NCBI GenBank assembly: GCA_016295275.1
Contig: JAEDLN010000001.1
Coordinates: forward strand, 2,165-66,164
Direction: 5' to 3'
DNA length: 64,000 bases
From: Kiritimatiellia bacterium
GTDB taxonomy: Bacteria > Verrucomicrobiota > Kiritimatiellia > RFP12 > UBA3636
Shown here in pieces: positions 33,741-59,087 of the stretch. Each line of letters begins with the position of its first letter. Positions within the stretch are counted from its first letter, which is position 1. A model generated the notes under the pieces. That model was not told the DNA's origin. It saw only the letters and a list, made by a program, of their open reading frames with translations, and searched no databases. Made by a program: the position numbers and the translations under genes.

Positions 33741-33743
33741 TCT

Positions 33744-35045: not shown

Positions 35046-35093
35046 ACCCGCTTCTCGACTCGACGCGCATCCTGTTAAGAGAGGAGTCCGCCA

Positions 35094-35729
35094 ATGGCAA
35101 AAGTAAAACTGACAAAAACGGAGTTGAAGGCCCAGAAAGATGCATTGGCCCGTTACCAGCGATTCCTGCCCATGCTCCAACTCAAGAAATCCCAGCTTCA
35201 GATGGAACTGCAGGGGATGCGTGCCCGCGCCGATGAAATCACCCGGCAACAGGAGGCTCTCCGAAAGGAAATGAATGCTTGGATCGGTCTTTTTGCAGAC
35301 GAATCCGCCAAAATCCCCCTGACCGTCGAAAAGGTCCGCCTTCACAGCGGTAATATCGCCGGTGTCGTTATCCCGATCTTCGATGGTATTGACGTGCATC
35401 GGGAGGAAATCGATTTGTTTGAAACCCCCGCCTGGATCGATGACGCTGCAGATGCCGCAGAACGCTTGATTGCGTTGCGCGCCGAACGGGACGTCGCTCT
35501 CCGCCAGGTCGAATTGATCGCCGAGGAACTCCGTACCACGTCCCAGCGCGTGAATCTCTTCGAAAAAGTGAAAATTCCGGAGTGCAAGGAAAACATCCGA
35601 GTGATCAATGTCGCAATCGGAGATGAACAAACCTCCGCCGTCGCCCGCGGTAAAATCGCAAAGGGACGTGGAAAAACCTCTCCCGAAACAGACGCGCCGT
35701 CGTCTCTAGAAAAGGAGGTCTCCAAATGA
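35094..35729 (+). CDS. atpD: V-type ATP synthase subunit D
   Basis: MAKVKLTKTELKAQKDALARYQRFLPMLQLKKSQLQ is the canonical V-ATPase D N-terminus. About 211 aa. Confidence 0.85.
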   Translation: MAKVKLTKTELKAQKDALARYQRFLPMLQLKKSQLQMELQGMRARADEITRQQEALRKEMNAWIGLFADESAKIPLTVEKVRLHSGNIAGVVIPIFDGIDVHREEIDLFETPAWIDDAADAAERLIALRAERDVALRQVELIAEELRTTSQRVNLFEKVKIPECKENIRVINVAIGDEQTSAVARGKIAKGRGKTSPETDAPSSLEKEVSK

Positions 35730-42939: not shown

Positions 42940-43293
42940 TGCAAAATCACTGCATACAATCGAACACACTTGGTTGCTGTCCGAACTTTTTCTCGCTGTT
43001 CCCACACGCCTTTTTCCCTTGCTTTCGCCACTTCCCTTCTTCTGTTCGTCACGACCCAAATTCGGAAATGCCAAGACTTAAAAGACTCGGAAAATCAAAT
43101 CGAGTAATTTTGAGCCGTCCGGTGTCTTTCAGAAGCGCCCGTAAATGCATAGAAAGGCTTGCTGTGTCCTTTGAAATGCACCCTTGTATCTTCTACTTTT
43201 TTTACGCCTTTTCCTTGCTAGAAAAGGCTGTTTTTGATAGACTGGACCAAAAGAAGCAAATCGCGCAAACACAAGACCTATTCTGATTTTCAA

Positions 43294-45498
43294 ATGACAG
43301 ACTCGGCAACTGTTTTACACGCCCAAAAGCGATCGAAATTCATTACGATCCGATCCCTCTTTTTCGGATTTTTGGGGATCTTTTTCATTGCGGGAACTGC
43401 CAAGTTCCACGACAATGTCTTGATGGGAACCTACCTGATCGGCAATCAGCTTCCGCCGGCGGCGTTTTTCTATCTGTGCCTCATTGGACTCGGATGGAAC
43501 GGTATGTGGATTTTGCTCGATCGCCTGTTTAAGGCTGAACATCGGCTTTCCGATGCGCTCGCGCTTTCGGCCAAGGAAATCGCAGTTGCATTTGCCATGA
43601 CGCTCGTCGCCTGCTGGGCTCCGACCTCTGGTCTCTGCCGCTATTTCCATACCCAAATCATGATGCCTTGGTACTTCCTCAGCAACCACCAAAGCTGGGA
43701 GGTTCATGGCTTGTTGACCGAATATCTGCGTCCGGAACTCTTCCCTTCCCCTTGGCCCGGAAACCCCGACGTCCTTTCGGATCCCGCCTACGAACGGGTC
43801 TATCGCGGCTTTTTCACGGGATTGGCAAAGGGCACCGAGACGCTCTCCATCCTTCAGCTTCCCCTTCGCGCTTGGATTGCTCCCATGCTGATTTGGGGGC
43901 CGTTCCTGACTTTGTTTGCCTTGACCTTGATTTCCATCCAATTCCTGGTGCACCGCCAGTGGGCCTCCCATGAACAAATCGCCTACCCGATTGCACAGGT
44001 GACCGGTCAACTCTTTCAGATGAGCGACGAGCGCAAGCATGTTCCCGGCATTTTCCGCAATCGGCTTTTCTGGTGGGGCGTCCTTCCGATTTTCGTCTTG
44101 TTGATGATCGAGTATCTCGCCAAATGGTTCCCGGAAACAGTCCCCGCCCTCTCCACGTTCCTTCCCAACCTAAAGGGCTGGTGGGTGCCCCTGTACACGC
44201 ACATGCCCATCATCAAAAAGGTCTATAACTACGGGGCGCTTCAGGGGCAAACCATCTTCTTCACATTCGTCGGCATTGCCTACTTCGTGAGCTCCGAAGT
44301 CTCCCTCTCCGTCGGTCTCTCCTACTTCCTGCTTGCCATCTTCTCCATCGGCTACTGGCAGACGACGGGAACCATCATCGACGGATCGGTCATGGAAAGC
44401 CTTCGCGGCGGCGCCTTTACCGGCTTCTTCTTCATTCTGGTCTTTACCGGCCGTTCGTATTTCAAGGCCGTCTTTGCTACTGCGTTTGGCATCCGAATCA
44501 GGAAACGAGCGAAAGCGGATGCGGATGCCTCGCAAGAAGAAAAAGACTTGGCGACTCCCGATGAAGTCTCCGTTCTTGCCGCCCGCGTTATGATCGTCAC
44601 GTTCATCGGGTTTGTGATCCTCTTTTCTTGGATGTGCCAATCTTGGCTCATTGCACTCGTTTTCTCCCTGCTGCTGTTTATGCTCTATACGGTGTTTTCC
44701 CGTATGGTCAGCGAAACGGGCATTCCCTTCCTCCAATCCGGTTGGACACCCGGATCGTTGCTGGTCTATTTGCTGGGCCCCGCCGCAATCGGACCGCACG
44801 CCTTGACCTATATCCTCTGGGCCGGAAACAACATCTTGACGCCCGACCCGCGCGAGGCGCTGATCGGGTACGTCTCCACCGGTGTCAAGATTGCCGATGA
44901 CAACCGCCTGAATCTCAAAAAAATCTTTCTCTGGATCTGCATCGCCGCTCTGGTCGCCATGGTCATCGGTTGGTTCGCCGCTTCTTGGGTTATCTACAAC
45001 TACAACCCGACGGGCGACGCTTGGGCACACGCATATCCGCCCGTCACTCCATTCGATTATTCCGCTCGCCTTTTCGCGGATATGAAAGCGGCCGGCACCT
45101 TTGCCGCTTCCGAGGCGGCCTCCCCGATCGCCCGCTTGGGCATGATTTCCGGCTCTGCCTTGAAGACGCACTACTTCTTCTATGGCATTATCGCAATTAT
45201 CCTGCTTTCTACCATTCGTTTTCGCTTCGCCAAATTCCCCCTCCATCCGATTCTGATCCTGATGGCCGGCACCTATCCCGCTGCGGCCGCATGGTCCTCC
45301 TTCTTGATCGGTTGGTTCATCAAACAGCTGATCGTACGTTTCGGCGGAGGCGGCGTCTATCAACGGTTCAAGCCCCTCTTCATCGGCATCATCGCCGGTG
45401 AAATTCTAACCATCGGGTTGACCATCGTCGTCGATTTTGCCTACTACATCATCGTAGGTTCGCCATCGCCTGTCCGCGTCAACTTTATGCCAGGCTAA
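43294..45498 (+). CDS. Large polytopic membrane protein of unknown function (paralog A, ~735 aa)
   Basis: At least 12 hydrophobic segments and a charged loop RIRKRAKADADASQEEK. C-terminal region FLIGWFIKQLIVRFGGGGVYQRFKPLFIGIIAGEIL resembles the C-terminus of the 53076..55082 product. Confidence 0.6.
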   Translation: MTDSATVLHAQKRSKFITIRSLFFGFLGIFFIAGTAKFHDNVLMGTYLIGNQLPPAAFFYLCLIGLGWNGMWILLDRLFKAEHRLSDALALSAKEIAVAFAMTLVACWAPTSGLCRYFHTQIMMPWYFLSNHQSWEVHGLLTEYLRPELFPSPWPGNPDVLSDPAYERVYRGFFTGLAKGTETLSILQLPLRAWIAPMLIWGPFLTLFALTLISIQFLVHRQWASHEQIAYPIAQVTGQLFQMSDERKHVPGIFRNRLFWWGVLPIFVLLMIEYLAKWFPETVPALSTFLPNLKGWWVPLYTHMPIIKKVYNYGALQGQTIFFTFVGIAYFVSSEVSLSVGLSYFLLAIFSIGYWQTTGTIIDGSVMESLRGGAFTGFFFILVFTGRSYFKAVFATAFGIRIRKRAKADADASQEEKDLATPDEVSVLAARVMIVTFIGFVILFSWMCQSWLIALVFSLLLFMLYTVFSRMVSETGIPFLQSGWTPGSLLVYLLGPAAIGPHALTYILWAGNNILTPDPREALIGYVSTGVKIADDNRLNLKKIFLWICIAALVAMVIGWFAASWVIYNYNPTGDAWAHAYPPVTPFDYSARLFADMKAAGTFAASEAASPIARLGMISGSALKTHYFFYGIIAIILLSTIRFRFAKFPLHPILILMAGTYPAAAAWSSFLIGWFIKQLIVRFGGGGVYQRFKPLFIGIIAGEILTIGLTIVVDFAYYIIVGSPSPVRVNFMPG

Positions 45499-45532
45499 GT
45501 CCCTTCCCTTTTTTCAACTCCCCCTTCGTTCC

Positions 45533-47062
45533 ATGAGCACTACTTCCGTCTACCGCGAGATTGACGTCAAGACGCAGCATGCCATGTCCCTACGGGAAAC
45601 ATGGATTCTGTGCATCCGAAGCGTAAAACATCGACTCTTCCGCTCGATGCTGACCCTCGCCGTCGTCGTCCTTGCCGTCGCATTCTTCATGTTCCTCCTC
45701 TCGGAGAGCCTTTTCCAACGCTCCATCGCAAACGGCGTGTTGGAGGAAGAATCTTTCAACCGGCTCTCGCAGACCACCCTGACGCGGATGCTGTCCAATG
45801 CACCGGAATTGACAATGGTTCACCGACTGTCCAATACCGCCAACCTCCTTCAGTCCAAAAACGCGGAAAAGGTCGCCCAAGGGAAAATACAACTGGAAGA
45901 ATATGCCCGCGTCTCCGGTCTCGATGTCGCCACAATCGAGCAACTCGCGCAGACCGCCAGCCGGGAAGTGATGTATACCACTTGGTTGGCCGATCTTCCG
46001 ACCGGGCACCGCCTCAACCTCATCGGAAAACGATCCGGCCGGCAAGCCATCGAATACATTCTCGCCAACTCGCAGGATTTCCACGATCAGCTGAAGATCA
46101 AAATCGAAATCCGCATTCCCGGAAAAATTGATACCCTTGATGCTTTCCTTGCCGCATATCCGACATACAAATCGCAACTTGGCGAATTCAATAAACGCTG
46201 GAACAACGGTGTCTCAAAGGCCGTCGAACGCACGCTCGAACGTAAGGGCGACCAGAAGAACGTACCCGACAATCGCTGGATCGCTGCAGCCGATGCGCAG
46301 ACGATTGAGGCATGGCGTAAAGACCTTGCCGATATCGGCTTTCAGCTTACGCCGGAACTCGTGGCGACCATCCAATCGCAATTGAAAGACGCGAATATGT
46401 TCGCGGATCTCGTGGAAGCGCTCAACCGGAATACGTTCCGTGTCGAATGGGCCCGCGAGTTCAACGAAACCAAACGCTCCTCCGCCGAAGAGAAAATGCC
46501 GTTCCTGACCGATAAGCGGGCAATCAAACTGCTGAAGGATCAATTCACTCCGGAGGTGCTTGAAAACATGAAAACGCGTTATGAACGCGTGAGGCGACTT
46601 TCCCTTCTCAATAACCGCCTCGCAATCGTCACAAAGGCAACTCCGTCCTTTCTCGGACTTACCGGTCGGCAACTCTTTCTGCTCTTTATCTCCTTCCTCG
46701 TTTGCATGGTCGGCATCACCAATGCAATGCTTATGTCGATTACCGAACGGTATCGCGAAATTGCAACGATGAAATGTCTCGGCGCGACCGATTCCTATAT
46801 CCTTTCCCAATTCATGATGGAGGCTGCCTTGCAAGGTACCGCCGGCGGTATCATCGGCGTTGTGGTCGGTTTCATCATTTCAACCGTCCGTTGCACCATT
46901 CTCTATGGATCCTACCTTTGGACCTATTTCCCGGCGGTCGATTTGCTGTTTTCCGCAATCTTCTCCTTGGTTGCCGGCATCCTCCTTTCCGCCTTGGCTT
47001 CCGTCCAACCGTCCTGGTCCGCCTCTCGTATGGCGCCCATGGAAGCAATGAGGGTCGAATAA
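45533..47062 (+). CDS. MacB/FtsX-type ABC permease (N-terminal TM, ~330-aa extracytoplasmic domain, C-terminal FtsX 3-TM domain)
   Basis: C-terminal FtsX domain GITNAMLMSITERYREIATMKCLGATDSYILSQFMMEA...LASVQPSWSASRMAPMEAMRVE. Confidence 0.8.
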   Translation: MSTTSVYREIDVKTQHAMSLRETWILCIRSVKHRLFRSMLTLAVVVLAVAFFMFLLSESLFQRSIANGVLEEESFNRLSQTTLTRMLSNAPELTMVHRLSNTANLLQSKNAEKVAQGKIQLEEYARVSGLDVATIEQLAQTASREVMYTTWLADLPTGHRLNLIGKRSGRQAIEYILANSQDFHDQLKIKIEIRIPGKIDTLDAFLAAYPTYKSQLGEFNKRWNNGVSKAVERTLERKGDQKNVPDNRWIAAADAQTIEAWRKDLADIGFQLTPELVATIQSQLKDANMFADLVEALNRNTFRVEWAREFNETKRSSAEEKMPFLTDKRAIKLLKDQFTPEVLENMKTRYERVRRLSLLNNRLAIVTKATPSFLGLTGRQLFLLFISFLVCMVGITNAMLMSITERYREIATMKCLGATDSYILSQFMMEAALQGTAGGIIGVVVGFIISTVRCTILYGSYLWTYFPAVDLLFSAIFSLVAGILLSALASVQPSWSASRMAPMEAMRVE

Positions 47063-47065
47063 TTT

Positions 47066-47839
47066 ATGATTACGTTCAACGAAGAAGAATACGCCGTCGG
47101 AAAGGAAGTGCTGGTGTCGGTCCACGACATCAAACGCGTCTTTTGGCGTGGCACGGAACCCGTTCATGCGCTCGATGGCATTTCGCTCAATATCTACCGC
47201 GGCGAATATATCTGCGTCATGGGTCCTTCCGGCTCCGGAAAATCGACCTTTTTCAATATGGTGGGCGGCTTGGATACCCCGACAGCCGGACGGGTATTCA
47301 TCGATGGCGTCGATATGGCGCAGCTCAACGCCGAGGAACTGGCATTCCTCCGTTGCCGCAAGATCGGGTACGTCTTTCAGCAGTTCAACCTCAATACGGT
47401 GATGACGGCCCTCGAAAACGTGACCCTTCCAATGGTCTTCGCCGGTGTCTCCGCAGATGAAGCCCGTGCCCGCGGAATGGCTCTCTTGGATCGCGTCGGA
47501 CTCGGTTCCCGCTGGAACCATCGTCCAAAGGAAATGTCCGGCGGCCAAATGCAACGCGTCGCAATCGCACGCTCGCTCGCCAACAATCCATCTATTCTCC
47601 TGTGCGACGAACCGACCGGAAACCTGGACTTGAAAACCGGCAAGGAAATCCATTTGCTCCTGCACGATTTGAACAAAAACGACGGTGTAACCGTCATCTG
47701 CGCAACACACGACCCGAATATGCTCTCCGTGTCGTCTCGCATGGTCTGGATCTGCGATGGAAAAATCGACCGAATCGCCGAATCCAAACACGTTAAGATT
47801 GAAAAAGACTCTTTGGGCATCGAGGAAGAAGATGAATAA
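47066..47839 (+). CDS. ABC transporter ATP-binding protein (MacB/LolD/FtsE type)
   Basis: Walker A GPSGSGKST, signature MSGGQMQRVAIARSL, Walker B LLCDEPTGNLD. Confidence 0.9.
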   Translation: MITFNEEEYAVGKEVLVSVHDIKRVFWRGTEPVHALDGISLNIYRGEYICVMGPSGSGKSTFFNMVGGLDTPTAGRVFIDGVDMAQLNAEELAFLRCRKIGYVFQQFNLNTVMTALENVTLPMVFAGVSADEARARGMALLDRVGLGSRWNHRPKEMSGGQMQRVAIARSLANNPSILLCDEPTGNLDLKTGKEIHLLLHDLNKNDGVTVICATHDPNMLSVSSRMVWICDGKIDRIAESKHVKIEKDSLGIEEEDE

Positions 47840-50800
47840 CAGAATCGCCTCCCGTCATATCGCCGCCTCCTTGTTCGCAACACTGCTCCTCGGAGTGTCC
47901 GCTACCTCTCTCGCCGCTCAGGACGCTACTGCGCCCGCGCCCGCCGCTCAGGACGCTGCTGCGCCCGTAAAAACGGCGCGTGAACAGGCTCGCGACTCCA
48001 TCCCCCTCCTTTCGACCGATACCGTTTACGGTCGTGTCTGGAATGCTTTGGCGCCAATGGACAACCGGCGCGTCGGAACGGAAAACCTCGAAACGGCATT
48101 CGCCGTTGTCAGCAACGAATTGGCAAAGGCCGGTCTCCAACCGCAAATCCAGACTTTCGATTCTCTTAGCCAGATCACAGAGCGACTCTCCTTGACCTAT
48201 GGAGGACAGGAGGTCAAAGGCGCATTGATGATCGATAACGGTCCCGCAACGTTCGTGCGGGACGAGCCGATTGCCGGAAACGCCATCTATGTCGGCAATG
48301 GACGACTCCAAGATTTCGAAGGAAAGAATCTTAAGGATTGTATCGCCATTCTGGATGCGAATCTTCCGAGAGCCGCAATCGCCGATGTCATGACACACGG
48401 CGCAAAAGCAATCGTTCTGGTCGGCGATTCTTCGCTTTCAAACTGGGATCTCAGCGATGTCGGTTTTACGGCAGTTACCTTGATTCCAAGAGTTTTCATC
48501 GACCGAATCGACGCAGAACGGGCGGGTCTTCTTCAGGCGGACGGCACCAAGAAAATGGTGCTCGATGCGCGCGCCGTCATTCGCGATGTACCCGGCAAAA
48601 ACCTCTGGGTCGAACTGCCGCACAAGAAAGGATGGACCGGAAATCTCGAGGCCGAAGAAATCCTTCTCCTCTCCGCAACAATCGACACATACGGCTTCAC
48701 CCCGGACTACTCGCCGGATCTTCGCCGCGCCGCCAATGTCGCCTTGCTGACCGATGTCGCGGCCTCTCTTGCCAATTCCGGCGAATTGAATCGCCGTGTG
48801 ATCGTCGTCTTCTTCGGCTCGTGCTACGCCGGCCAAGAGGGTGCTCGGTTCTTTTACCATGCCATTGATATGGCAGATAAGAACATCAATAACCTCGATC
48901 TCGAAAAACGCGGCTTGGATTACGATGCGGAACTCGCCGAAGTCCGCGAACTCATCGCGTTCGCAAAGCAGAACAATATCATCGATGCACAGGGCCCTCT
49001 TGCGCGTACGCTCCAAATTCGCCTGAAGCGGGAATTGGTTTCCTTCAGCAACGCCCTCCGTACGCCAATCGGAAATCTTCGCGAACGAATCAACGCTCTT
49101 AAAAACGAACTCTCGGACGCCAATGACGAAACCGAAAAGGAGCGTATCCGGAAACAAATCGCCGATACCGACGCGCAACTGAAAAACGCCGAAGCCGAAC
49201 GCGAAGCAACCAATCTCCTGCGCGAACAACTCGTCAAAAAACACTACGATCCGGAAGCCGGCGCAAATGGCAATCCGCAGACCGATGTCGCCGCCATGTA
49301 CGACCGGATGACGACACTCGCACTCGATCGCTTGTATACGCGCCAGACGGAACTGGAAAACATGGTCGCCAACAATAAGACCTGGATGAAGCTATCCAAG
49401 CTTTTCGAAGGAGCCTATGTAACCGGACATTTCGATTTCGACTTCGCCGACGCCCATGCGCCTTGGATGCTTTCCATGATCAATGCCGGCGGTCTCTATC
49501 GTCAGGGTACGCCCAGCATCGGTGCCTATGGTCGCCATATATCCGCCATCCGCAACATCTACTTCGGAGCCTCCGGCCATGGCGGCATCTCGAAAGACCA
49601 TTTCCCGGGCCCCAATGGAGAACCGCCTTCCGCCGAACCATGGACATCCATGCTCTACGAACCGGCCCTTTCCGCGACTTACAAGCCCTATTCGCTCTCT
49701 TCTCGCTATCAACGCCTCGTTCCGTCCGCACTCTCGCAGTGCCTAGGTATCGCAGGCTTCCAGATGATGACGGCCGGAAAAGAGACCTCCCACGACAATC
49801 TTCCCTTCGCCGACTCCGTCGACCTCTCCCCGCTTCGCAACCAAATGGTTGCTTTCTGCAAGGAACTCGGCAATTCCATTGAATTCTCCCTTCGTAGCGT
49901 TTTTACCCCTCAACGGCTCGAACCCCGCCTGATCTACTACAAGGAAACGGGCGTCCGATTCCTCAACTACGCCGCCGGTTCGACCGACAACGAGGGAATC
50001 CCCCAGCGCGCCATCGTCTATTATACCGCATTCCCAAGACCCGAAGCTTGGGTCGGCCAAGGCGCACAGCCCCGTTCGCGAATCCTTGCCAATGGACGTA
50101 TTTATATGCCGTTTATCGGCCGTAACGTCGCCTCAACCTCTTGGCTGTTCACAACGGTCGCCCTTGGATATGACGCCAATGGAAAACTGGACCGTGTGAC
50201 AACCTCCGCCGATGCCTATGGCATCAAGGCAACTCCCGTCCACCTCTTCTACGCATACGGCGGCCTCGCATTCGGCGATGGCTATAAGCCCGATCCCGTT
50301 GGCGGCGATCTCTACGAACCGAAGACACTTGTCGCTTCAAAGGACGCTCCGCACAAAACATCGAATACCATCCTCTTGGAAGCCGGACGCTTCAAGGAAT
50401 TCTTCGCCGATCGAAACGACCCGATCAAAATTATCGGCGGAAACGGCGATATGCTCCTCGGTTCCGTCACAAATGCTCCCGGCATCGATCGATTGAAAGG
50501 TGCTATGGGAATCGGCGTGAAACTGGATGCCGATGCCCGCCTCCATGCAAACAATATCGAACAGGGTGCAAACGATGCATACTTGCTGAATGAGGCTCGC
50601 CTCGCGATTCTTCGCGAACGCAATATCGTACGCGACGATCTCGAAAAGTTCCATGCCGATTCGAAAGATCATATCGAAGCCGCCGCCCAAGCAACCCGCG
50701 AAAAACATTGGGCCTTGGCCGAAGCACACCAGATCTTCGCAAACTGCATCGAAAATCGTATCTATCGCCCGCTTCGCGGCGTCACCGAAGATCTCGTTCA

Positions 50801-52967
50801 AGCCGTTGTCGTACTGCTGCTACTGAATATCCCGTTCGCTTTTGCGATGGAACGCTTGATTTTCGGCTTTCCCTCCATCTACAAACAGCTGATCGGTTTC
50901 GCAGGTTTCTTCCTGGCGACATTCGGCATCCTGTTCCTTACCCATCCCGCCTTCTCGCTGGCTTCTGCGCCGATCATCATCTTCCTCGCATTTGTCATTA
51001 TTATGCTGGCCTGCATCACGTCGGCTATCATGATGGGTAAAATTCGCTCCGAAATCCGGGCGATGCAAGGTCTTTCCTCAACCGTTCACGGTGTCGAAAG
51101 CGACTCCTCTACAACCCTCTCCGCAATTCTCATCGGTATCGCCGGTATGCGGAATCGCCCTCTGAAGACATTCTTGACCTGCATCACGGTCGTGCTTCTT
51201 ACCTTTACGATCTTGGTATTCGCCTCCTTCACGGCACAACAGGGCGTGGTCGACTCCTATATCGGACGCGGAACCGATGAAAACCGGATCGAACTACACC
51301 GTCTCTCGTTCCTTCATATCGATGGTGATTTTATCGACTCCTTGCAAAGCCTGTACGGCGATCGTTTCGATATCGTCCGCCGTGGCGGCCTCTTCCGCGT
51401 ACCTACCCGTTCCAACGATACGGGCGATACGCCCGTCAACCCCGAACGCGTCCTCTTCCTGCCGAAATCCGGCGAGGCAATCCAGATGGCCGCTGTCATG
51501 GGACTCGATCCAAAAGAGATTCAACACGCTTCCGGTTTCCGGAAAGTCTGCCCGGAATTGGCCGACGCCGAAACGCCCCTACCCCCGATTTTCCTTCCGC
51601 CTGTTGTCACCAATAAGCTGACACAACTCGTGAAAGGCGATGAAATCCGCTTGAACGGCGTTCCGTTTACCTTTGCAGGATTCTTCGATACGCAAGCCCT
51701 TCAGCAGGTCTCCACGATCGATGAACTCCGTGGCGTTCCTCCCGACTTCCAGTCGACCCTTTCCAACTCCGGTTCCTCCGCAACCAGCGGCTCTTCGATT
51801 GAATTCCTCGAAGATATGCCGACCGGAACCTTCGAGTGGTTCGCTCCCGAAGTCTGCGCCATCGCACGGATGGACGATTTGAAGAGCCGGTTCGATCAGC
51901 ATAACATGTGTAACTTCCTCGTGCTCTATCCAAAAGAAGGTCAAGATGATCTCGACCTCTTTGAAATCGCAAAGGAACTTGCCCCGGCTTTTCAAGGTAC
52001 CGTTCACGTCAAAACCGCCGAAGGCGCCCATAGCCTCTTCTTTACCCAAGCGGTTCAAGGATCCGGCTTCTCCGATGTCGTCGTTCCGCTCCTCCTCGGC
52101 GGTCTGATCATCTTCTCTTCGCTGATGGGTTCCATTGTCGCCCGCGAAAAAGAAATCTTTACCTACTCGGCCTTGGGACTCGCTCCCGTTGATGTCGGAG
52201 CACTCTTCTTTGCCGAGTCCGCAGTCTACTCCGTGATCGGCGGCATGGGCGGCTACCTCGTCAGCCAGTTGGTTGCGAAACTGTTCAAGTTCCTCGGATC
52301 GCACGGTTTCATTACACCGCCTGAAATGAACTTCTCATCGCTGACGTCCGTCTGCACGATCCTGATCGTGATGGCTGTCGTCATGCTCTCGACAATCTTC
52401 CCCGCTTTGCGTGCGTCCAAGTCCGCAAACCCCGGCGTTGCCCGCAAATGGAAAATGCCCTCGCCCAAAGGCAATAAACTCGAATTCGTTTTCCCGTTCA
52501 CCGTTTCCTCGGTCGATTTCGCCGGCATCCTCTCCTTTATCCGCGAACACTTCAACAACCACGGCGATGCAACCCTCGGATCCTTCGCCGCCCGGGATGT
52601 CCGACTTTTCAAAGAAACCGGAAAGGACGGAAAGGAACATATCGGTATCGAGGCGAATATCTCGCTCGCTCCTTTCGATCTCGGCATCTTCCAGCGCTTC
52701 CGCATGTATTCGCAGGAATTTGAAATCAAGGGAATCGATGAAGTGGTCGTGGATTTGACCCGCATTGGAGGCACGCCCGATTCTTGGGTGCGCTCAAACC
52801 GCGATTTCGCAGCCGAACTCCGTGAACAATTCCTTCTTTGGCGCTCGCTTCCGATCTCGACCATCGAACACTACCGCAGTGCTACGATGAGCGATTTGAA
52901 TGCAGAGGATCAAACGCCCCCGACGCCGGATCCCGCTTCTTCCAAGAAGCCGAAGGGAACGAAATAA
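47832..52967 (+). CDS. Giant (~1710 aa) secreted/membrane fusion protein: signal peptide, ~900-aa extracytoplasmic region (PA/M28-peptidase-like segment plus coiled coil), then duplicated FtsX-type permease domains
   Basis: Ala/Pro-rich signal region. Segment EEILLLSATIDTYGF...RRVIVVFFGSCYAGQEGARFF resembles the M28/PA-domain fold. Coiled coil ERINALKNELSDANDETEKERIRKQIADTDAQLKNAEAERE. Two FtsX-like TM clusters, the second containing MGSIVAREKEIFTYSALGLAP. Start overlaps the ATPase stop by 8 nt. Confidence 0.7.
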   Translation: MNNRIASRHIAASLFATLLLGVSATSLAAQDATAPAPAAQDAAAPVKTAREQARDSIPLLSTDTVYGRVWNALAPMDNRRVGTENLETAFAVVSNELAKAGLQPQIQTFDSLSQITERLSLTYGGQEVKGALMIDNGPATFVRDEPIAGNAIYVGNGRLQDFEGKNLKDCIAILDANLPRAAIADVMTHGAKAIVLVGDSSLSNWDLSDVGFTAVTLIPRVFIDRIDAERAGLLQADGTKKMVLDARAVIRDVPGKNLWVELPHKKGWTGNLEAEEILLLSATIDTYGFTPDYSPDLRRAANVALLTDVAASLANSGELNRRVIVVFFGSCYAGQEGARFFYHAIDMADKNINNLDLEKRGLDYDAELAEVRELIAFAKQNNIIDAQGPLARTLQIRLKRELVSFSNALRTPIGNLRERINALKNELSDANDETEKERIRKQIADTDAQLKNAEAEREATNLLREQLVKKHYDPEAGANGNPQTDVAAMYDRMTTLALDRLYTRQTELENMVANNKTWMKLSKLFEGAYVTGHFDFDFADAHAPWMLSMINAGGLYRQGTPSIGAYGRHISAIRNIYFGASGHGGISKDHFPGPNGEPPSAEPWTSMLYEPALSATYKPYSLSSRYQRLVPSALSQCLGIAGFQMMTAGKETSHDNLPFADSVDLSPLRNQMVAFCKELGNSIEFSLRSVFTPQRLEPRLIYYKETGVRFLNYAAGSTDNEGIPQRAIVYYTAFPRPEAWVGQGAQPRSRILANGRIYMPFIGRNVASTSWLFTTVALGYDANGKLDRVTTSADAYGIKATPVHLFYAYGGLAFGDGYKPDPVGGDLYEPKTLVASKDAPHKTSNTILLEAGRFKEFFADRNDPIKIIGGNGDMLLGSVTNAPGIDRLKGAMGIGVKLDADARLHANNIEQGANDAYLLNEARLAILRERNIVRDDLEKFHADSKDHIEAAAQATREKHWALAEAHQIFANCIENRIYRPLRGVTEDLVQAVVVLLLLNIPFAFAMERLIFGFPSIYKQLIGFAGFFLATFGILFLTHPAFSLASAPIIIFLAFVIIMLACITSAIMMGKIRSEIRAMQGLSSTVHGVESDSSTTLSAILIGIAGMRNRPLKTFLTCITVVLLTFTILVFASFTAQQGVVDSYIGRGTDENRIELHRLSFLHIDGDFIDSLQSLYGDRFDIVRRGGLFRVPTRSNDTGDTPVNPERVLFLPKSGEAIQMAAVMGLDPKEIQHASGFRKVCPELADAETPLPPIFLPPVVTNKLTQLVKGDEIRLNGVPFTFAGFFDTQALQQVSTIDELRGVPPDFQSTLSNSGSSATSGSSIEFLEDMPTGTFEWFAPEVCAIARMDDLKSRFDQHNMCNFLVLYPKEGQDDLDLFEIAKELAPAFQGTVHVKTAEGAHSLFFTQAVQGSGFSDVVVPLLLGGLIIFSSLMGSIVAREKEIFTYSALGLAPVDVGALFFAESAVYSVIGGMGGYLVSQLVAKLFKFLGSHGFITPPEMNFSSLTSVCTILIVMAVVMLSTIFPALRASKSANPGVARKWKMPSPKGNKLEFVFPFTVSSVDFAGILSFIREHFNNHGDATLGSFAARDVRLFKETGKDGKEHIGIEANISLAPFDLGIFQRFRMYSQEFEIKGIDEVVVDLTRIGGTPDSWVRSNRDFAAELREQFLLWRSLPISTIEHYRSATMSDLNAEDQTPPTPDPASSKKPKGTK

Positions 52968-53075
52968 TACCTCCGCTCCGGAACAAAATGGGGTTCCGTC
53001 CCTATGTTCCGGTATGTGACGGCGCACTTTTCCCTCTTTTCGTCTTTTCCATTTTCCCTACAGATATTCTTGACA

Positions 53076-55082
53076 ATGAGTTTTCTGAGTAAACTGCTCC
53101 ACCGCCGAGTAAAGACCACAGATGCCGAATTGGAAGAGTTTCGGGCTCTCCTGACCGTCCCCGATTCTTTCGAGGAAGGTTTCAATGTCACATCCTTGCT
53201 TGGCACTCTCTTTGTGGCCCTCATCATGGTCCCGGGTGCCCTCTACATGGAACTCGTTGCCGGTGCCGGTCTTGGCGGTGCCGCACAATGGGTGACCGTC
53301 TTGCTCTTCGTAGAAGTCGCCAAACGGGCAAATGCCAAACTGTCGCGTGCCCAGCTCTTCATCCTCTTCTACATGGCCGGTATGGTCATGGCAACCAATG
53401 TTTGGAATACGCCGCTCTTCACGCAGTTCCTCGTACGTTCCGATGCGGCTGTCGCAACCGGCGTTGCCGCCGATATCCCCGTCTGGGTCGCACCGAAAAA
53501 TCTGGATACGCTCCCGCGTACGTTCCTCTCCAAAGCATGGTTGCCTTTTATCGGTTTGATGCTGTTCCGCGAAATCATGGGACGCTTGAACTCGGCAATC
53601 CTGGGATACGGCCTCTTCCGCTTGACTTCCGATATCGAGCAACTCCCCTTCCCGATGGCTCCCGTCGGCGCACAGGGTATCGTTGCAATCGCCGAACAGG
53701 TGGAAGGCTCTGTCAAAGCAGCAGGTGCGTCCGTCCGCTGGAGAATGTTCTGCGTCGGATGCGGAATCGGTATGATTTTCGGCTTGGTTTACATGGCATT
53801 GCCGACGATTACCGGCGCCCTCTTCGGCAAACCGCTGATGGCGTTCCAAATCCCCTTCGCCGATTTCACGCCGTACACGCAGTCGTTCTTGCCGGCAACC
53901 GCTACCGGTCTCTCCTTCGACCTTGGCAATATCATCCTTGGCATGGTGCTTCCGTTCTGGTCGATGGTCGGCTCCTTTGTCGGTTTGATTTTTACCTTCG
54001 TATTGAACCCCATCCTGTATACCCTCGGAATGATGCCGACTTGGGAACAGGGCGATACGACTGTGCGGACGCTCTTTGCAAACAATGTCGATTTCTACTT
54101 CTCTTTCCAAATCGGCATCTCCCTTGCAATCGCGTTCTTCGGTATCTGGGTTGCCCTCAAGACGCTGCGGCGCGGCAAACGCGACAAGGTCGAACACGAT
54201 CACGCCGAACGGATTCTCCGCCTCTCCAAAATGCGCGGTCATATCCCCGTTCCGCTCGTATTCGCAACCTATGCCATTTCCTGCGTCCTCTATATCCTCG
54301 TCTGCGGTTGGCTGATCGATTGGCACCCGGGTGTCATGTTCGTCCTTTTCTTCTTCGCCTTCATCTATACCCCGCTGATTTCTTATGTGACGGCACGTCT
54401 CGAAGGTCTCGCCGGACAGGTTATCGAAATTCCCTTCATCACGGAAATTTCATTCATCCTCTCCGGCTATACCGGTGTCCGGATTTGGTTTATCCCCATT
54501 CCAAAATCGAACTACGGCGTACAGGTGGTGAGCTACAAACAGGCCGAACTCCTCGGTTGCAAGTTTGGCTCAATCTGGAAAGCCCAATTGATCCTCTTCC
54601 CGATTATTATCGTTTCCTCTTTGCTCTTCTCGTCCTTCATCTGGTCCTTGGCTGAAATTCCCTCCGCCGTTTACCCCTTTACAGAACAAATCTGGGACTT
54701 GACTGCAAAGAATACGTGCTTGATCTACTCCTCGACAATCGGCGAATACAGCCAGTTCAAAGAGGCTCTCAGTTGGGGGCGCTTCCTCGCAGGCTTGGGA
54801 TCCGCTGGTGCTTTGATGGGTGTGCTAGGATGGTTCGGAGCTCCGACCATGCTTTTCTTCGGCGTCGTCCGTGGTCTTGGGCAAACCGCGCCTCACTCCG
54901 TGATTCCAAACTTTATCGGCGCTTTGATCGGAAAATTCTATTTCGAGCGTAAATTCGGTCGCGAATGGCGTAAAATGATTCCCGTCGTTTCCTCCGGATT
55001 CTTCGTCGGAACCGGTCTCGTCTCGATCCTTTCCGTCGGCATCGTGTTTCTCTGCAAGGCCGTCTCTACTGCCGCATACTGA
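53076..55082 (+). CDS. Large polytopic membrane protein of unknown function (paralog B, ~668 aa)
   Basis: More than 12 hydrophobic segments, charged loop LRRGKRDKVEHDHAERILR, C-terminal NFIGALIGKFYFERKFGREWRKMIPVVSSGFFVGTGL resembling paralog A. Confidence 0.6.
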   Translation: MSFLSKLLHRRVKTTDAELEEFRALLTVPDSFEEGFNVTSLLGTLFVALIMVPGALYMELVAGAGLGGAAQWVTVLLFVEVAKRANAKLSRAQLFILFYMAGMVMATNVWNTPLFTQFLVRSDAAVATGVAADIPVWVAPKNLDTLPRTFLSKAWLPFIGLMLFREIMGRLNSAILGYGLFRLTSDIEQLPFPMAPVGAQGIVAIAEQVEGSVKAAGASVRWRMFCVGCGIGMIFGLVYMALPTITGALFGKPLMAFQIPFADFTPYTQSFLPATATGLSFDLGNIILGMVLPFWSMVGSFVGLIFTFVLNPILYTLGMMPTWEQGDTTVRTLFANNVDFYFSFQIGISLAIAFFGIWVALKTLRRGKRDKVEHDHAERILRLSKMRGHIPVPLVFATYAISCVLYILVCGWLIDWHPGVMFVLFFFAFIYTPLISYVTARLEGLAGQVIEIPFITEISFILSGYTGVRIWFIPIPKSNYGVQVVSYKQAELLGCKFGSIWKAQLILFPIIIVSSLLFSSFIWSLAEIPSAVYPFTEQIWDLTAKNTCLIYSSTIGEYSQFKEALSWGRFLAGLGSAGALMGVLGWFGAPTMLFFGVVRGLGQTAPHSVIPNFIGALIGKFYFERKFGREWRKMIPVVSSGFFVGTGLVSILSVGIVFLCKAVSTAAY

Positions 55083-55087
55083 TCGGA

Positions 55088-55597
55088 ATGCCGGAACAAA
55101 CCGATTTTTCCCAGGAGGAAATTCACTCCGCCGATCTCGCGGAACAGCTCTTCCGCTCGGGAGCAGCATGCTCCCAAGCGGTTGTGCTCTCTCAAGCCGA
55201 GCGACTCGGTCTGCCCGAAGCCCTCTGTGCAGATCTGACGCTCGGTCTCGGTGGCGGCGTCGCCCGTTCGCGCCAAATCTGCGGTTGCGTTTCAGGATAC
55301 GCTTTGCTCGCCGGAATCTGCCACGGATCCGGCTTGGCTTTTTCTCCGGAGGCAAAAGCGGAGACCTATGCGTGCGTTCAGTCCTTTCTTGACCAATTCA
55401 AAGCTGCATTCAAAAGCACGACATGCGGAGAGCTTCTCGCCCTTCGAGCCGAGTCTGCAAAGGCCGCAGCCGATGACGCCGCAACCCCTTCCGAACGGAC
55501 ACAGACATACTATCATCACCGTGCTGGGTGCATCCAATGCATCCGTTTTGCCGCAAGTATGGCGGCACGCCTTCCCGTCCCCCGGAAACAAAGCTAG
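55088..55597 (+). CDS. C_GCAxxG_C_C family protein (second copy in window)
   Basis: SGAACSQAVVLS motif plus C-terminal Cys pairs. Confidence 0.55.
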   Translation: MPEQTDFSQEEIHSADLAEQLFRSGAACSQAVVLSQAERLGLPEALCADLTLGLGGGVARSRQICGCVSGYALLAGICHGSGLAFSPEAKAETYACVQSFLDQFKAAFKSTTCGELLALRAESAKAAADDAATPSERTQTYYHHRAGCIQCIRFAASMAARLPVPRKQS

Positions 55598-56930: not shown

Positions 56931-57287
56931 TTGACTGCCGATTCGGGCAATGATACAAATCCAAATGCAGACGCTATCGTTCTTTCCGCAAACAAGTACG
57001 CGACAATGCCGTGACGACTACAAGAAAGGCAGACTCTTTGCATTCGGCAAGTAGTGCCATCCTGATAGAGGGAGTAGAAATATAATCCCCCCCGAAAGAC
57101 ATCGTCCCCAGATGCGATTCAAGGGAAAATGGCGTGGCCTTGTAGCTGGAAGAATAAGAAATTTCAGGGCAATCCGTGCGCGGTTGACACGTTCGACGAT
57201 GATACGAACAAGACGCGAAATAACCATGTTTTCTCGGACATTTTCCGTTACGCCGTTTTTTTGGTAGTGTTGTGCGCCATGAATATC

Positions 57288-59087
57288 ATGAGTCTTCAAA
57301 AGATTGCCATCGCATTTGGCGGACCGCCTGTTCTCGACGACGTCACCTTTTCCGTTGAAAAGGGGGATCGGGCCTGTATCACAGGCAGAAACGGAGAAGG
57401 AAAATCGACCCTTTTGAAGATCATGGCGGGTATTCTCGAACCGGATCATGGAGAAATCGCAACCGCTCCCAATCTCCGGATCGCCTATCTGAGCCAAGAC
57501 GTACCCGGAGATCGCCAAGGCTCTGCGGAAACCGCTTGCGAGCACGAACTGCACAACGCTCGGAATGTTTCGCGGGTTCGTGAATTCCTAACTCGACTCG
57601 GCATCAATCCGGAACAGCCGTTCAATTCCCTTTCAGGCGGTCAACGCCGTCGCGCGCTCCTTGCCGCCGAATTGGCTGCAGAACCAGATCTGCTGCTCCT
57701 CGATGAACCGACAAACCACCTCGATATCGAAACAATCGAATGGCTGGAGGAGTACCTCGCGAAATCTTTGCTGACATGCGTGTTCATTACGCACGACCGC
57801 GCCTTTTTGCGCCGGACGGCTCGACGCGTTTTCGATCTGGATCGCGGACGGCTTTCCGGTTGGAACTGCGATTACGAAACCTTCCTTCGGAGGAAGGCCG
57901 ATCTGCTCGCGGAAGAAGAAGTGGCGAATCGACGAAAAGAAAAAAGGCTTGCCGCAGAAGAATCTTGGCTTGTCCATGGCGTTACCGCCCGTCGTTCCCG
58001 AAATATGGGGCGCGTCGCCGGTCTGAAAGCACTCCGTCAGGAACTCGCAGAACGCCGCCAAAGCATCGGTACTGCCAAAATGTCGTTGAATACCGTATTG
58101 GTTGGCGGTGAAATCGTCGCAAAAGCAAAGGATGTCACCTTCCAATACCCCGGAGCGGAAAGACCGATCGTCAAGGATTTCAATGCAATTGTTCTTCGAA
58201 AAGACCGCATCGGAATCATCGGCCCGAATGGCTCCGGAAAAACAACTCTTCTCCGGATTCTTCTGCAACAACTTCAGCCGCAGTCAGGCTCTGTCGAACT
58301 GGGCGCTCGTGCTTCCGTTTCGTTTCTGGACCAACTTCGCACAACGTTGGATCCGGATAAAAGCGTTGCGGAAAATGTGGCGGATGGACACGATCAAGTC
58401 GTCATCAACGGCGTTACGCGGCATGTCCTTGGATATTTGCAGGATTTCCTATTCTCGCCCGATCGCGCCCGGACCCCCGTTCGAGCACTCTCCGGCGGCG
58501 AACGCGCCCGACTGTTGCTCGCAAAGCTCTTCCTCTCTCCCGGCAATATTCTCGTAATGGACGAGCCGACAAACGACCTCGATATGGAGACGCTCGAAAT
58601 TCTAGAGGACCTTTTGCTGAACTATCCGGGAACCCTCCTTCTCGTCAGTCATGATCGCGCGTTTCTCGATCAAGTCGTAACCTCCTCGTTTGTCCTTCTA
58701 GGAGATGGCTCCGTCTATACCTGCCCGGGAGGATATGCCGATTGGCAACGCGAAAAACCGAATGTCCTTGCCGCTCTCGGAAAGGTACAATCTTCGGCTC
58801 CGAAAGACGCCTCGGCTCCCGTTTCCAAAGCAAGCCCCCAAAACCAGACAAAGGTCTCGCAACGCAAACTCGGCTTCAACGAAAAACGGGAACTCGAACG
58901 CTTGCCTGCTGAAATCGAACGTCTCGAAAAGCAAATCGCCGATCTCGAACAACGCCTTTCGGACGGACGTTACTTCGTAACCAATCCAACCGAGGCACAG
59001 ACCGATGCGGCACTGCTCCCGCAACAAAAGGCGGAACTGGAACAAAAACTGGAACGATGGATGATGCTGGAGGAGCTGAAGGGATAA
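57288..59087 (+). CDS. uup: ABC-F family ATPase (Uup/EttA-like, two ABC domains plus C-terminal coiled coil)
   Basis: Two Walker A motifs (GRNGEGKST, GPNGSGKTT), two signature motifs (LSGGQRRRALLAAEL, LSGGERARLLLAKL), C-terminal coiled coil. Start at MSLQK (57288) by analogy to Uup, with an alternative ATG at 57279. Confidence 0.85.
   Translation: MSLQKIAIAFGGPPVLDDVTFSVEKGDRACITGRNGEGKSTLLKIMAGILEPDHGEIATAPNLRIAYLSQDVPGDRQGSAETACEHELHNARNVSRVREFLTRLGINPEQPFNSLSGGQRRRALLAAELAAEPDLLLLDEPTNHLDIETIEWLEEYLAKSLLTCVFITHDRAFLRRTARRVFDLDRGRLSGWNCDYETFLRRKADLLAEEEVANRRKEKRLAAEESWLVHGVTARRSRNMGRVAGLKALRQELAERRQSIGTAKMSLNTVLVGGEIVAKAKDVTFQYPGAERPIVKDFNAIVLRKDRIGIIGPNGSGKTTLLRILLQQLQPQSGSVELGARASVSFLDQLRTTLDPDKSVAENVADGHDQVVINGVTRHVLGYLQDFLFSPDRARTPVRALSGGERARLLLAKLFLSPGNILVMDEPTNDLDMETLEILEDLLLNYPGTLLLVSHDRAFLDQVVTSSFVLLGDGSVYTCPGGYADWQREKPNVLAALGKVQSSAPKDASAPVSKASPQNQTKVSQRKLGFNEKRELERLPAEIERLEKQIADLEQRLSDGRYFVTNPTEAQTDAALLPQQKAELEQKLERWMMLEELKG

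Follow-up and report, generated by a model that had tools for sequence, protein, structure and literature searches.

Five co-directional open reading frames, A-B-C-D-E, occupy positions 43294-55082 on the plus strand of the window, by which we mean the whole 64,000-nucleotide stretch of DNA that was analysed. We consider it quite possible, if somewhat short of probable, that they represent the reduced form of a widespread and undescribed envelope system, which would combine a Type VII (MacB/FtsX-fold) ABC motor with a dead-peptidase ectodomain, an OPT-type partner and a peptide-like ligand. Literature searches turned up no description of this system, in line with a first-pass annotation of the same DNA that had not recognised the architecture. 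The observations of that annotation stood for the genes, the type of C and the fold of the ectodomain, and fell for a double FtsX domain, paralogous flanking proteins and a canonical B. Of its interpretation, the Type VII ABC module, the fusion and the conserved gene order were supported and the hydrolase, the double FtsX and the duplicated partners were not.

All five genes were found where they had first been placed, with the 8-nt overlap between C and D that follows from the coordinates. A (43294..45498) encodes a polytopic membrane protein of 734 aa with DUF6785 and DUF6784, B (45533..47062) a 509-aa FtsX-type permease unit, C (47066..47839) a 257-aa ABC ATPase of LolD/MacB/FtsE type, D (47832..52967) a 1711-aa fusion protein that is the signature gene of the system, and E (53076..55082) a 668-aa polytopic membrane protein that is a divergent OPT/YSL member. 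Since many homologues exist for all five proteins, the genes are real and not chance reading frames. For D and E the starts match those of database proteins with full-length identity of 100% (P0001, 1711 aa, and P0338, respectively). Upstream of A, a terminator-like hairpin with an 8-bp stem and a T run was picked up at 43206..43228 on the plus strand by a consensus scan only, which is not evidence of function. The hairpin is probably the end of the upstream unit, so that the A-E cluster would start its own transcript.

D begins with a Sec-type signal peptide or signal anchor (aa 1-29, 47832..47918), read from the sequence as MNNRIASRHIAASLFATLLLGVSATSLAAQ, with a hydrophobic segment at aa 10-29. 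An ectodomain of ~950 aa follows, and its AF2 model had a pLDDT of 87.3 and a pTM of 0.87. The first half of an M28 fold, with a PA (apical) domain inserted, spans aa 45-346 (47964..48869). The fold is then split by a coiled-coil insertion of four long helices (aa 350-525, 48879..49406; AF2 helices 357-380, 389-429, 433-469 and 486-525, pLDDT mostly >90), which is the least conserved region of D (0.29). After the coiled coil, aa 529-690 (49416..49901) was assigned to the second half of the M28-like fold from AF2 secondary structure and from Foldseek alignments of ~670-770 columns to M28 enzymes, with high rmsd. The beta-rich periplasmic domain at aa 700-880 (49929..50471; AF2 strands with pLDDT ~70-93) had no separate Foldseek match among the top 50, all of which were M28-type proteins. 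Comparison of the D family profile with the PDB gave the aminopeptidase 2ek8 (3.6e-23), BSAP (3.4e-18), PaAP (5e-8), nicastrin (2.3e-5) and nicalin (5.9e-4), and Foldseek matched PA-M28 aminopeptidases, TfR and GCPII at 5e-16 to 1e-11. The secreted N-terminal region with a PA/M28-like segment and a coiled coil, as first described, was confirmed.

In the first half of this fold the catalytic motifs of D are degenerate: HxD reads TID, the GAxDD region reads DLRRAAN and Glu-Glu reads CY. Across 70 D-family sequences N, T, P, R, D or A stands in place of the HxD histidine, a conserved Arg adjoins the lost bridging Asp position, and Glu-Glu has given way to Q/H/C plus A/Y; conserved instead are R298 (66/70) and N302 (69/70). 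Candidate ligand positions in the second half, which were picked by motif resemblance and not by alignment, are not conserved (537 is D in 35/70; 654 is R/H/variable), and the conserved residues there are H533 (65/70), W545 (69/70) and P658 (70/70). The M28-like segment has thus not kept its metal ligands. This family-wide loss of metal-ligand and catalytic positions argues for a predicted pseudo-peptidase like the transferrin receptor or nicastrin, and not a hydrolase. D285 is conserved in the D family, as is H533, and a single-metal or non-canonical activity of the ectodomain would be a remote possibility.

The first-pass annotation had instead inferred an ATP-powered extracytoplasmic hydrolase or envelope-remodelling machine, read here as a catalytically active M28 enzyme under ATP control. 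The M28/PA fold of D fits that proposal, NCBI names the homologue P0025 'M28 family peptidase', and among distant homologues there are four matches above the Pfam M28 threshold, three of them spanning only about profile positions 1-81 of 193. D of the window, however, had no Pfam M28 match at E<0.1, and with the active-site positions lost across 70 sequences we regard an active hydrolase as highly improbable and already largely refuted by the sequence. Like D, the eukaryotic M28-fold pseudo-peptidases (transferrin receptor, nicastrin, nicalin) have a membrane-attached PA and M28 fold ectodomain, and TfR and nicastrin have likewise lost their catalytic residues, the fold presumably serving binding; GCPII, 2ek8, BSAP and PaAP are the active PA-M28 relatives. 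Unlike all of these, D is bacterial, is split by the 175-aa coiled coil, continues into further domains and is fused to an ABC permease, and its sequence identity to M28-fold relatives is only ~10-19%.

A three-helix stalk (aa 884-989, 50481..50798; AF2 helices 908-929, 935-956 and 960-989) leads from the ectodomain into the membrane, where AF2 placed three extra TM helices and one MacB-type 4-helix unit. The extra helices (aa 990-1075, 50799..51056; AF2 and hydropathy) have a conservation of 0.68, with P1001, F1002, E1007, R1008, P1039, F1041 and F1054 invariant. As a candidate FtsX domain this block was rejected, since hhalign found no match to FtsX TM2-4: the E values were 0.17 and 0.35, whereas the positive control reached 4e-13. 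The MacB/LolC-type unit itself is single (aa 1110-1532, 51159..52427) and consists of TM1, a periplasmic core domain (~1136-1410) and TM2-4; Pfam also detected one FtsX stretch (1419-1530). D had been credited with two FtsX-type transmembrane domains and has one, and the covalent fusion of a peptidase-like extracytoplasmic domain to FtsX machinery was borne out. In YbbP and BceB the TM helices number ten and are made up of a pair of FtsX units plus two linkers (PMC5985334, PMC12646458). In contrast to these fused double-FtsX permeases of YbbAP-TesA and BceAB, D has one FtsX unit and three TM helices without detectable FtsX homology. At the C-terminus lies a conserved cytoplasmic alpha/beta domain (aa 1549-1692, 52476..52907), for which the tentative candidates are a Bet v 1/START/AHA1 (SRPBCC) helix-grip fold and a KA1 fold. 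Conservation within D is higher in the TM and cytoplasmic parts (0.61-0.79) than in the ectodomain (0.29-0.45).

Hydropathy of B gave TM1 at ~aa 33-63, then a ~315-aa ectodomain and TM2-4 at aa 372-494. Pfam FtsX matched the C-terminal domain (4.7e-18, aa 382-501), PDB matches to MacB, LolC, LolF and FtsX were limited to aa ~372-509, and the ectodomain had no MacB_PCD match. With a match in the TM2-4 region only, the first designation of B as a canonical MacB-type permease was not confirmed. B is present in 30 of 32 loci. A four-helix FtsX-type unit with an NBD-coupling motif occurs once in B and once in the C-terminal half of D, the motif being TERYREIATMKCLG in B and REKEIFTYSALG within the TM2-4 part of D; both motifs were read from the sequence and were also used as search pattern for relatives. 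C scored against NCBIfam LolD (2.6e-65), MacB NBD (1.4e-63) and FtsE (1.3e-56), all below the equivalog cut-offs, in agreement with its first designation as an FtsE/LolD-type ATPase. Walker A, Q-loop, signature, Walker B and H-loop are intact and conserved among 57 orthologues, and C is predicted to be a catalytically intact ATPase of LolD/MacB type.

The flanking membrane proteins had been taken for duplicated, paralogous partners alike in their C-terminal thirds. A matched Pfam DUF6785 (3.2e-69) and DUF6784 (1.5e-20) and has at least 11 hydrophobic segments, and E matched Pfam OPT (5.5e-8; 32.4 bits, cut-off 25.8). BLASTP between A and E found no match (best E 1.6); the profile-profile comparison gave a borderline match (prob 35-68%, E 4e-4 to 5e-5) in the N-terminal third. 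What remained of the proposed duplication was a borderline remote similarity only. Pfam OPT matched 16 of 37 E orthologues (best 6e-11) and not the other 21, and NCBI labels E orthologues 'OPT/YSL family transporter' or 'peptide transporter'. By threshold and by naming E is like the OPT/YSL transporters (PF03169; TC 2.A.67), but its branch is divergent and shows strict linkage with a Type VII ABC system. The known role of OPT proteins is import, and we know of none reported as part of an ABC complex.

E lies directly 3' of D in 31 of 32 loci and is an obligatory neighbour of D; A, present in 21 of the 32 well-flanked loci, is a frequent accessory of the system and not obligatory. A and E might be independent DUF6785-type and OPT-type peptide importers merely beside an unrelated ABC system. 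DUF6785 genes do occur alone, the distant members being solo genes with peptidase genes adjoining, and about a third of the clusters lack A. The D-E adjacency, however, extends over several phyla, and the called-gene coordinates of D and E overlap or abut in two loci (L002 and L003). Without a shared function, an order kept this well at 30-40% identity would be difficult to account for, and we therefore judge independent neighbours to be very unlikely.

The giant protein D is encoded in at least 564 species-level genomes from PVC phyla, Myxococcota, Chitinivibrionales and Omnitrophota. At 50% clustering its homologues comprised 2082 representatives at E<=1e-3 and 1056 at E<=1e-30, the best 150 being mostly ~1500-1950 aa long. 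B-C-D-E is kept across phyla in ~30 of the 32 loci with enough flank; the related loci are all MAG contigs, on which genes were predicted with simple ORF rules. Three further genes occur in most relatives: a second ATPase, C2, whose motifs are intact and which is 51% identical to C; a PqqD-like peptide chaperone, with PF05402 at 1.1e-8 and weak matches in NCBIfam to RiPP chaperones; and a ~300-aa protein, X300. The conserved order is B-C-D-E(-C2), with A, X300 and PqqD, and no further conserved gene family was found in the loci. C2, X300 and PqqD were looked for in the window and are absent, as they are from L001 and L033, which also keep A-B-C-D-E. The window cluster is a reduced five-gene form of the larger eight-gene system.

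Peptide (RiPP-like) export would give the additional genes a place: a peptide bound by the cytoplasmic PqqD-type chaperone and the ~300-aa protein would be passed outward by the OPT-like E, possibly together with C2, and then be expelled or delivered from the periplasm by the B/D Type VII unit and its receptor-like ectodomain. MacB expels small peptide toxins from the periplasm. PqqD-like and X300 genes lie in the cluster of most relatives and neither consensus has an N-terminal hydrophobic segment, which agrees with such export. It is nevertheless unlikely in our view: the surroundings of the clusters yielded no precursor peptide and no conserved small ORF (20-110 aa), no maturase is recognisable (Pfam, NCBIfam and PDB gave no match for X300), membrane-fusion and TolC-type genes are not conserved in the cluster, OPT proteins are known importers, and the window and two other loci do without PqqD, X300 and C2.

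In the envelope system that we favour, B and D would pair as a LolCE-like heterodimer with C serving both, joined in most relatives by C2; B2C2 and D2(C2)2 could also be separate homodimeric machines. ATP binding and hydrolysis would act through the FtsX helices on the periplasmic side, and mechanotransmission, as first suggested, is a reasonable inference from the Type VII ABC fold. The motor would move the dead-peptidase ectodomain of D, a binding or gating module like the transferrin receptor or nicastrin and not an enzyme. The ligand is probably peptide-like, judging by family names and neighbours (OPT/YSL for E, the PqqD-like gene, DUF6785 beside peptidase genes), and would cross the inner membrane via the OPT-type E (and A), not the ABC unit. 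In relatives the cytoplasmic PqqD-like chaperone would have a feeding or regulatory part in the system, as would the ~300-aa protein, and the lineage of the window would have dispensed with both. The roles proposed for C2, X300 and PqqD cannot apply in the window, since all three are absent there. The work of Type VII ABC systems is done in the periplasm and involves no substrate transport across the membrane, and partner proteins play a role (PMC12646458, PMC5985334).

With LolCDE, the Type VII ABC lipoprotein extractor, the cluster shares two different FtsX-fold 4-TM permease units around a LolD-type ATPase; besides the LolD score of C, both fold and sequence match D and B to LolC/LolE. All scores stay well short of the Lol equivalog cut-offs, no Porter/Sabre ectodomain is recognisable in B, and D is longer by ~1100 residues before its FtsX unit (ectodomain, three TM helices, linker) and by the C-terminal cytoplasmic domain after it. 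The cluster includes an OPT-like partner and no LolA-like partner, and relatives add a second ATPase. Distinctly unlikely, we think, is that a lipid, lipoprotein or other hydrophobic molecule is pulled from the inner membrane as by LolCDE or YbbAP-TesA, with the ectodomain as receiving chaperone, the cytoplasmic SRPBCC-like domain as lipid sensor, and A and E accessory or unrelated.

FtsEX-EnvC, FtsEX-PcsB and FtsEX-RipC also couple a Type VII motor to a coiled-coil-bearing periplasmic module, and the LytM domain of EnvC is itself catalytically degenerate. The cluster conserves no amidase or peptidoglycan hydrolase, unlike these systems, for which mechanotransmission is the likely principle (PMC7668044, PMC12646458). 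The degenerate enzyme fold of D is M28/PA and not LytM, and its ectodomain is covalently fused to the permease instead of being bound to it.

The cluster comprises five genes on the + strand, here named A to E. A (43294-45498) and E (53076-55082) encode the flanking polytopic membrane proteins, B (45533-47062) a permease, C (47066-47839) an ATPase and D (47832-52967) a giant fusion protein. All five were called as open reading frames; the start of D matches that of the database protein P0001 (1711 aa, 100% identical, full length) and the start of E that of P0338 (668 aa, 100% identical, full length). A and B are separated by 34 nt, B and C by 3 nt and D and E by 108 nt, and C overlaps D by 8 nt. 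A terminator-like hairpin, a consensus match only, lies 5' of A at 43206-43228. The cluster is flanked by ordinary chromosomal genes for TruA, a PNP/UDP phosphorylase, a xylose-isomerase-like TIM barrel, a C_GCAxxG_C_C protein, an ABC-F protein, an EamA transporter, V-ATPase subunits, two SNF2 helicases and lacto-N-biose phosphorylase. The gene for the C_GCAxxG_C_C protein (55088-55597, +), putatively redox-active, begins 5 nt past E and may be co-transcribed with it; the same family was also found near the cluster in the related locus L001, and in other lineages it is not conserved there.

C was assigned to the LolD/MacB/FtsE-type ABC ATPases by its profile scores (LolD 2.6e-65, MacB NBD 1.4e-63), and its catalytic motifs GPSGSGKST, SGGQ, DEPT and ATHD are all intact. 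As it stayed under every equivalog cut-off, C is none of the named orthologues. B contains the FtsX C-terminal domain (4.7e-18) in a TM topology of 1 + 3. The solved MacB, LolC, LolF and FtsX chains matched B at aa ~372-509 only, and no MacB_PCD match was found in its ectodomain of ~315 aa. The system holds two distinct FtsX-fold units, one in B and one in D, with a coupling motif in each. In Type VII ABC systems a conformational change driven by ATP reaches the periplasmic side, and the substrate is not carried across the membrane (PMC12646458). Two features of this superfamily were present here: an FtsX-fold unit of four helices whose TM1 and TM2 enclose an extracytoplasmic domain, and an ATPase of the MacB/LolD/FtsE type, cognate to it, in which the catalytic motifs are intact. 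Judged from superfamily fold and ATPase, the system would operate as a Type VII ABC machine.

D was modelled in two pieces, residues 1-990 and 941-1711, both models resting on an alignment of 25 sequences. The model of residues 1-990 (pLDDT 87.3, pTM 0.87) starts with a signal peptide at the N-terminus, followed by an M28 aminopeptidase fold into which a PA domain is inserted (aa 45-346), then a coiled-coil insertion of four helices (aa 350-525) and an alpha/beta region which we assigned as the remainder of the M28 fold (aa 529-690). A beta-rich domain (aa 700-880) and a three-helix stalk (aa 884-989) complete this piece. Foldseek grouped this model with PA-domain M28 aminopeptidases (2ek8 at 5e-16, BSAP, PaAP), the transferrin receptor and GCPII. 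The profile of the D family matched 2ek8 (3.6e-23), BSAP (3.4e-18), nicastrin (2.3e-5) and nicalin (5.9e-4), and Pfam matches to PA, Peptidase_M28 and MacB_PCD were present in more distant homologues; a single-sequence PDB search with the ectodomain gave coiled-coil noise only. The PA/M28 segment and coiled coil in D had thus been correctly recognised in the first-pass annotation, which had also raised the question whether the metal ligands of M28 are retained.

M28 enzymes carry the motifs HxD, GAxDD and EE, with His, Asp, Glu, Asp/Glu and His as co-catalytic zinc ligands and the catalytic Glu in EE. The corresponding positions in D were located by alignment to 2ek8 and BSAP combined with these motifs. 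The HxD position is T283-I-D285 in D, the GAxDD region reads DLRRAAN and the Glu-Glu position is C331-Y332. Among 70 family members the column of the HxD His holds N/T/P/R/D/A, that of the bridging Asp G/A/S or variable residues next to a conserved Arg, and the Glu-Glu columns Q/H/R/C and A/Y/S. Candidate ligand positions in the second half, picked by motif resemblance, were likewise without conservation in the 70 members. The ligands are therefore not retained, as the co-catalytic ligand and EE positions are replaced across the family. With its catalytic residues lost, the D ectodomain is by sequence a pseudo-peptidase, M28 by fold and not in the enzymatic sense, as are the transferrin receptor, nicastrin and nicalin. 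An active hydrolase would accord with the fold and disagree with these replaced residues, and we regard it as very improbable.

In the bridging-Asp region of the D family R298 (66/70; 48723-48725 in the window) and N302 (69/70; 48735-48737) are near-invariant, which suggests a remodelled pocket, possibly anion-binding. At one related locus (L005, 10001-23902) the order D-E-X-P-B-C, where X is a protein of ~300 aa (X300) and P a PqqD-like protein, is followed by a separate Peptidase_M28 protein of 561 aa and a YfhO-like membrane protein. The D protein of this locus keeps the PA match and has no M28 match, which is a hint that the pseudo-enzyme may at times have an active M28 enzyme beside it.

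In the model of residues 941-1711 (pLDDT 78.7) three long TM helices at aa ~990-1075 are followed by a cytoplasmic linker and a single MacB/LolC-type unit, in which a periplasmic core domain lies between TM1 and TM2-4 and TM2-4 carry the coupling motif REKEIFTYSALG. Residues 1549-1692 form a conserved alpha/beta domain, weakly assigned as to fold. Past the signal peptide, the AF2 topology of D counts 3 + 4 TM helices. Since a signal anchor followed by an ectodomain and three TM helices mimics the FtsX topology, we tested the three-helix block as a degenerate second FtsX unit. No profile similarity of the hhalign type was detected between the block and FtsX TM2-4 of either D or B (E 0.17 and 0.35), whereas the positive control, TM2-4 of D against TM2-4 of B, gave a probability of 97.9% and E 4e-13. 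Homology was thus unsupported and the candidate was rejected; the block possibly mimics FtsX in topology. Pfam also found one FtsX stretch in D, and the "double FtsX" of the earlier reading was given up. The mean column majority was highest in the membrane and cytoplasmic parts of D (0.61-0.79) and lowest in the ectodomain (0.29-0.45).

The characterised Type VII set is known to include MacAB-TolC, LolCDE, FtsEX, BceAB, HrtBA, YbbAP-TesA and YtrEF. Because of sub-cut-off scores, different domain layouts and absent partners, we concluded that the system holds no orthologue of LolCDE, MacB, FtsEX, YbbAP or BceAB. YbbP and BceB have two FtsX units per chain and 10 TM helices, whereas D has one FtsX unit and the three-helix block. 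An MFP adaptor or outer-membrane duct as in MacAB-TolC was absent among the conserved neighbours and in the window flanks.

Of the two flanking membrane proteins, A matched the Pfam families DUF6785 (3.2e-69) and DUF6784 (1.5e-20); among 120 listed homologues all 120 had DUF6785 and 117 also DUF6784. E matched Pfam OPT (PF03169) with 32.4 bits at a cut-off of 25.8, over profile positions 133-620 of 623, and the OPT match was found in 16 of 37 E orthologues, for which NCBI uses the names "OPT/YSL family transporter" and "peptide transporter". On these matches E is a divergent member of the OPT/YSL transporter family, a family known for the proton-coupled uptake of oligopeptides or metal chelates. 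Profile searches of the PDB by sequence gave no match for A or E. The two proteins had been thought homologous in their C-terminal thirds, which found no support: BLASTP detected no similarity (best E 1.6), and the profile-profile comparison by hhalign was borderline (probability 35-68%, E 4e-4 to 5e-5) and confined to the N-terminal third. This match centres on HRQWxxHE-L-YP in A and FRLTSDIEKLPFP in E, a motif which we presume to resemble the PSGTATA-type motif of OPT/YSL proteins. A distant common origin of A and E is possible on this basis. In L001 (2807-7658), whose D protein is the closest long relative (78% identical), DUF6785 occurs as a tandem pair of genes (728 and 734 aa) in place of the single gene of the window. 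Distant stand-alone DUF6785 genes were seen beside Peptidase_M55, a D-aminopeptidase family, in L085 (8914-11929) and beside a trypsin-like protease in L086 (10001-13714), which gives a weak hint that DUF6785 proteins may handle peptides. A reading as iron uptake, by a transferrin-receptor-like domain and a YSL-like transporter, was rejected; it comes from the names only, and there are no iron-related neighbours.

A pattern scan for relatives of D, one genome per species, gave at least 564 loci. The best 80 came from Kiritimatiellia, Lentisphaeria/Victivallales, Verrucomicrobiota/Opitutales, Planctomycetota, Polyangiales/Myxococcales, Chitinivibrionales and Omnitrophota, the nearest relatives being gut and rumen Kiritimatiellia MAGs. 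These 80 closest relatives, all MAG contigs, were kept, and simple ORF rules served to call their genes. With D 941-1711 as query, an exhaustive HMMER search matched 1056 representatives of 50% identity clusters at E<=1e-30 and 2082 at E<=1e-3; most of the 150 best matches were ~1500-1950 aa long and matched in their C-terminal ~750 aa. Gene presence was counted in 32 loci with enough flank. C and E were present in 31 each, B in 30, a second intact ATPase (C2, with 51% identity to C) in 27, the PqqD-like protein in 23, A in 21 and X300 in 19. Family HMMs gave A-X-P-B-C-D-E-C2, X-P-B-C-D-E-C2 and A-B-C-D-E-C2-X-P as typical orders. Gene order is thus conserved in relatives, a point which the first-pass annotation had put up for checking, with B, C, D and E nearly constant; mere co-location of neighbours, as an account of the cluster, appears improbable to us. 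All-against-all clustering of the cluster loci gave no conserved family beyond the eight, two extra "families" being antisense ORFs. At one locus (L046, 1-17757) the system occurs twice in tandem on one contig (D-E-B-C-P-C-X-P-B-C-D-E-C2).

The window, L001 and L033 have A-B-C-D-E only. Family HMMs found no orthologue of C2, X300 or the PqqD-like protein in the whole 64-kb window, which therefore carries a reduced form of the eight-gene system. The gene at 57129-59087 (+) was rejected as C2; it encodes a 652-aa ABC-F protein (two ABC domains and ABC_tran_CTD) with a generic HMM match.

X300 had no Pfam, NCBIfam or PDB match. The PqqD-like protein of the relatives matched PF05402 (1.1e-8) and, weakly, RiPP chaperone models, which would suit a RiPP-like peptide export route. 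A search of 2756 small ORFs in the surroundings of the clusters gave no conserved cis-encoded precursor peptide, only antisense artefacts having clustered, and no recognisable maturase was found in the clusters of relatives. A RiPP cluster was thus recognised neither in the window, which has no PqqD-like gene, nor in the relatives, where this gene stands without a conserved small ORF or recognisable maturase, and we consider such an export route rather unlikely.

Partner proteins define the function of Type VII systems, which are classified, and their functions predicted, by partners (PMC12646458). Here the OPT/YSL gene E always lies downstream of D, C overlaps D, and D joins a non-catalytic PA/M28 ectodomain to an FtsX unit. 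Among Type VII systems the known layouts include homodimers, a heterodimer in LolCE and fused forms in BceB/YbbP (PMC5985334). B and D would form a LolCE-like heterodimer driven by C, and by C2 where present. Lipid or lipoprotein extraction is unlikely in our judgement. From the fold only, we infer mechanotransmission, an ATP-driven long-range conformational change as defined in PMC12646458: the motor would move the pseudo-peptidase ectodomain, which would bind or gate a ligand. This ligand is probably peptide-like, to judge by the partner of OPT/YSL type, the genes found around DUF6785 and the PqqD-like chaperone, and it would cross the membrane via E and/or A. We tentatively propose, as a possibility held with low confidence, a new pathway for handling peptides at the inner membrane in PVC bacteria, Myxococcota and allied groups, in which a Type VII motor is firmly joined to a pseudo-peptidase receptor resembling the transferrin receptor or nicastrin and forms one machine with an OPT-fold channel, joined in most lineages by a second ATPase and a cytoplasmic PqqD-type chaperone. 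If true, no earlier case would be known of an OPT-family protein working within an ABC-driven complex, or of a pseudo-M28 receptor in bacteria.

Literature searches by domain names and their combinations found no account of the system, and in public databases the proteins are annotated as "hypothetical protein", "M28 family peptidase", "FtsX-like permease family protein", "DUF6785 family protein" or "OPT/YSL family transporter". We rate the Type VII ABC architecture and its partner set as new; it adds an ectodomain of dead-peptidase type fused to the permease, three further TM helices that are conserved, a cytoplasmic domain weakly assigned as SRPBCC-like and an obligatory OPT/YSL partner. The system occurs in hundreds of species from phyla with poorly understood envelopes (Kiritimatiellia, Lentisphaeria, Verrucomicrobiota, Planctomycetota and Polyangia), and offers an entry point to the roles of bacterial OPT/YSL and DUF6785 proteins, to the reuse of a peptidase fold as a bacterial receptor and to the coupling of mechanotransmission to a separate transmembrane conduit.

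Elsewhere in the window, a regulatory-looking fusion of a Na+/H+ exchanger with a PTS EIIA-2 domain (781 aa) is encoded at 19784-22129 (+). Two SNF2-related helicase-domain genes follow in tandem at 22245-25790 and 26092-29733 (+); their products, ~1200 aa each, are paralogue-like in appearance, with N-terminal ~700 aa that have no domain assignment. V/A-type ATPase genes occupy 33663-37609 (+), with an A/B-type subunit from 33663 and a subunit-I-like gene at 35726-37609. The product of a gene at 61109-63457 (-), 782 aa long and autotransporter- or adhesin-like in appearance, carries passenger-associated-transport repeats (PATR).
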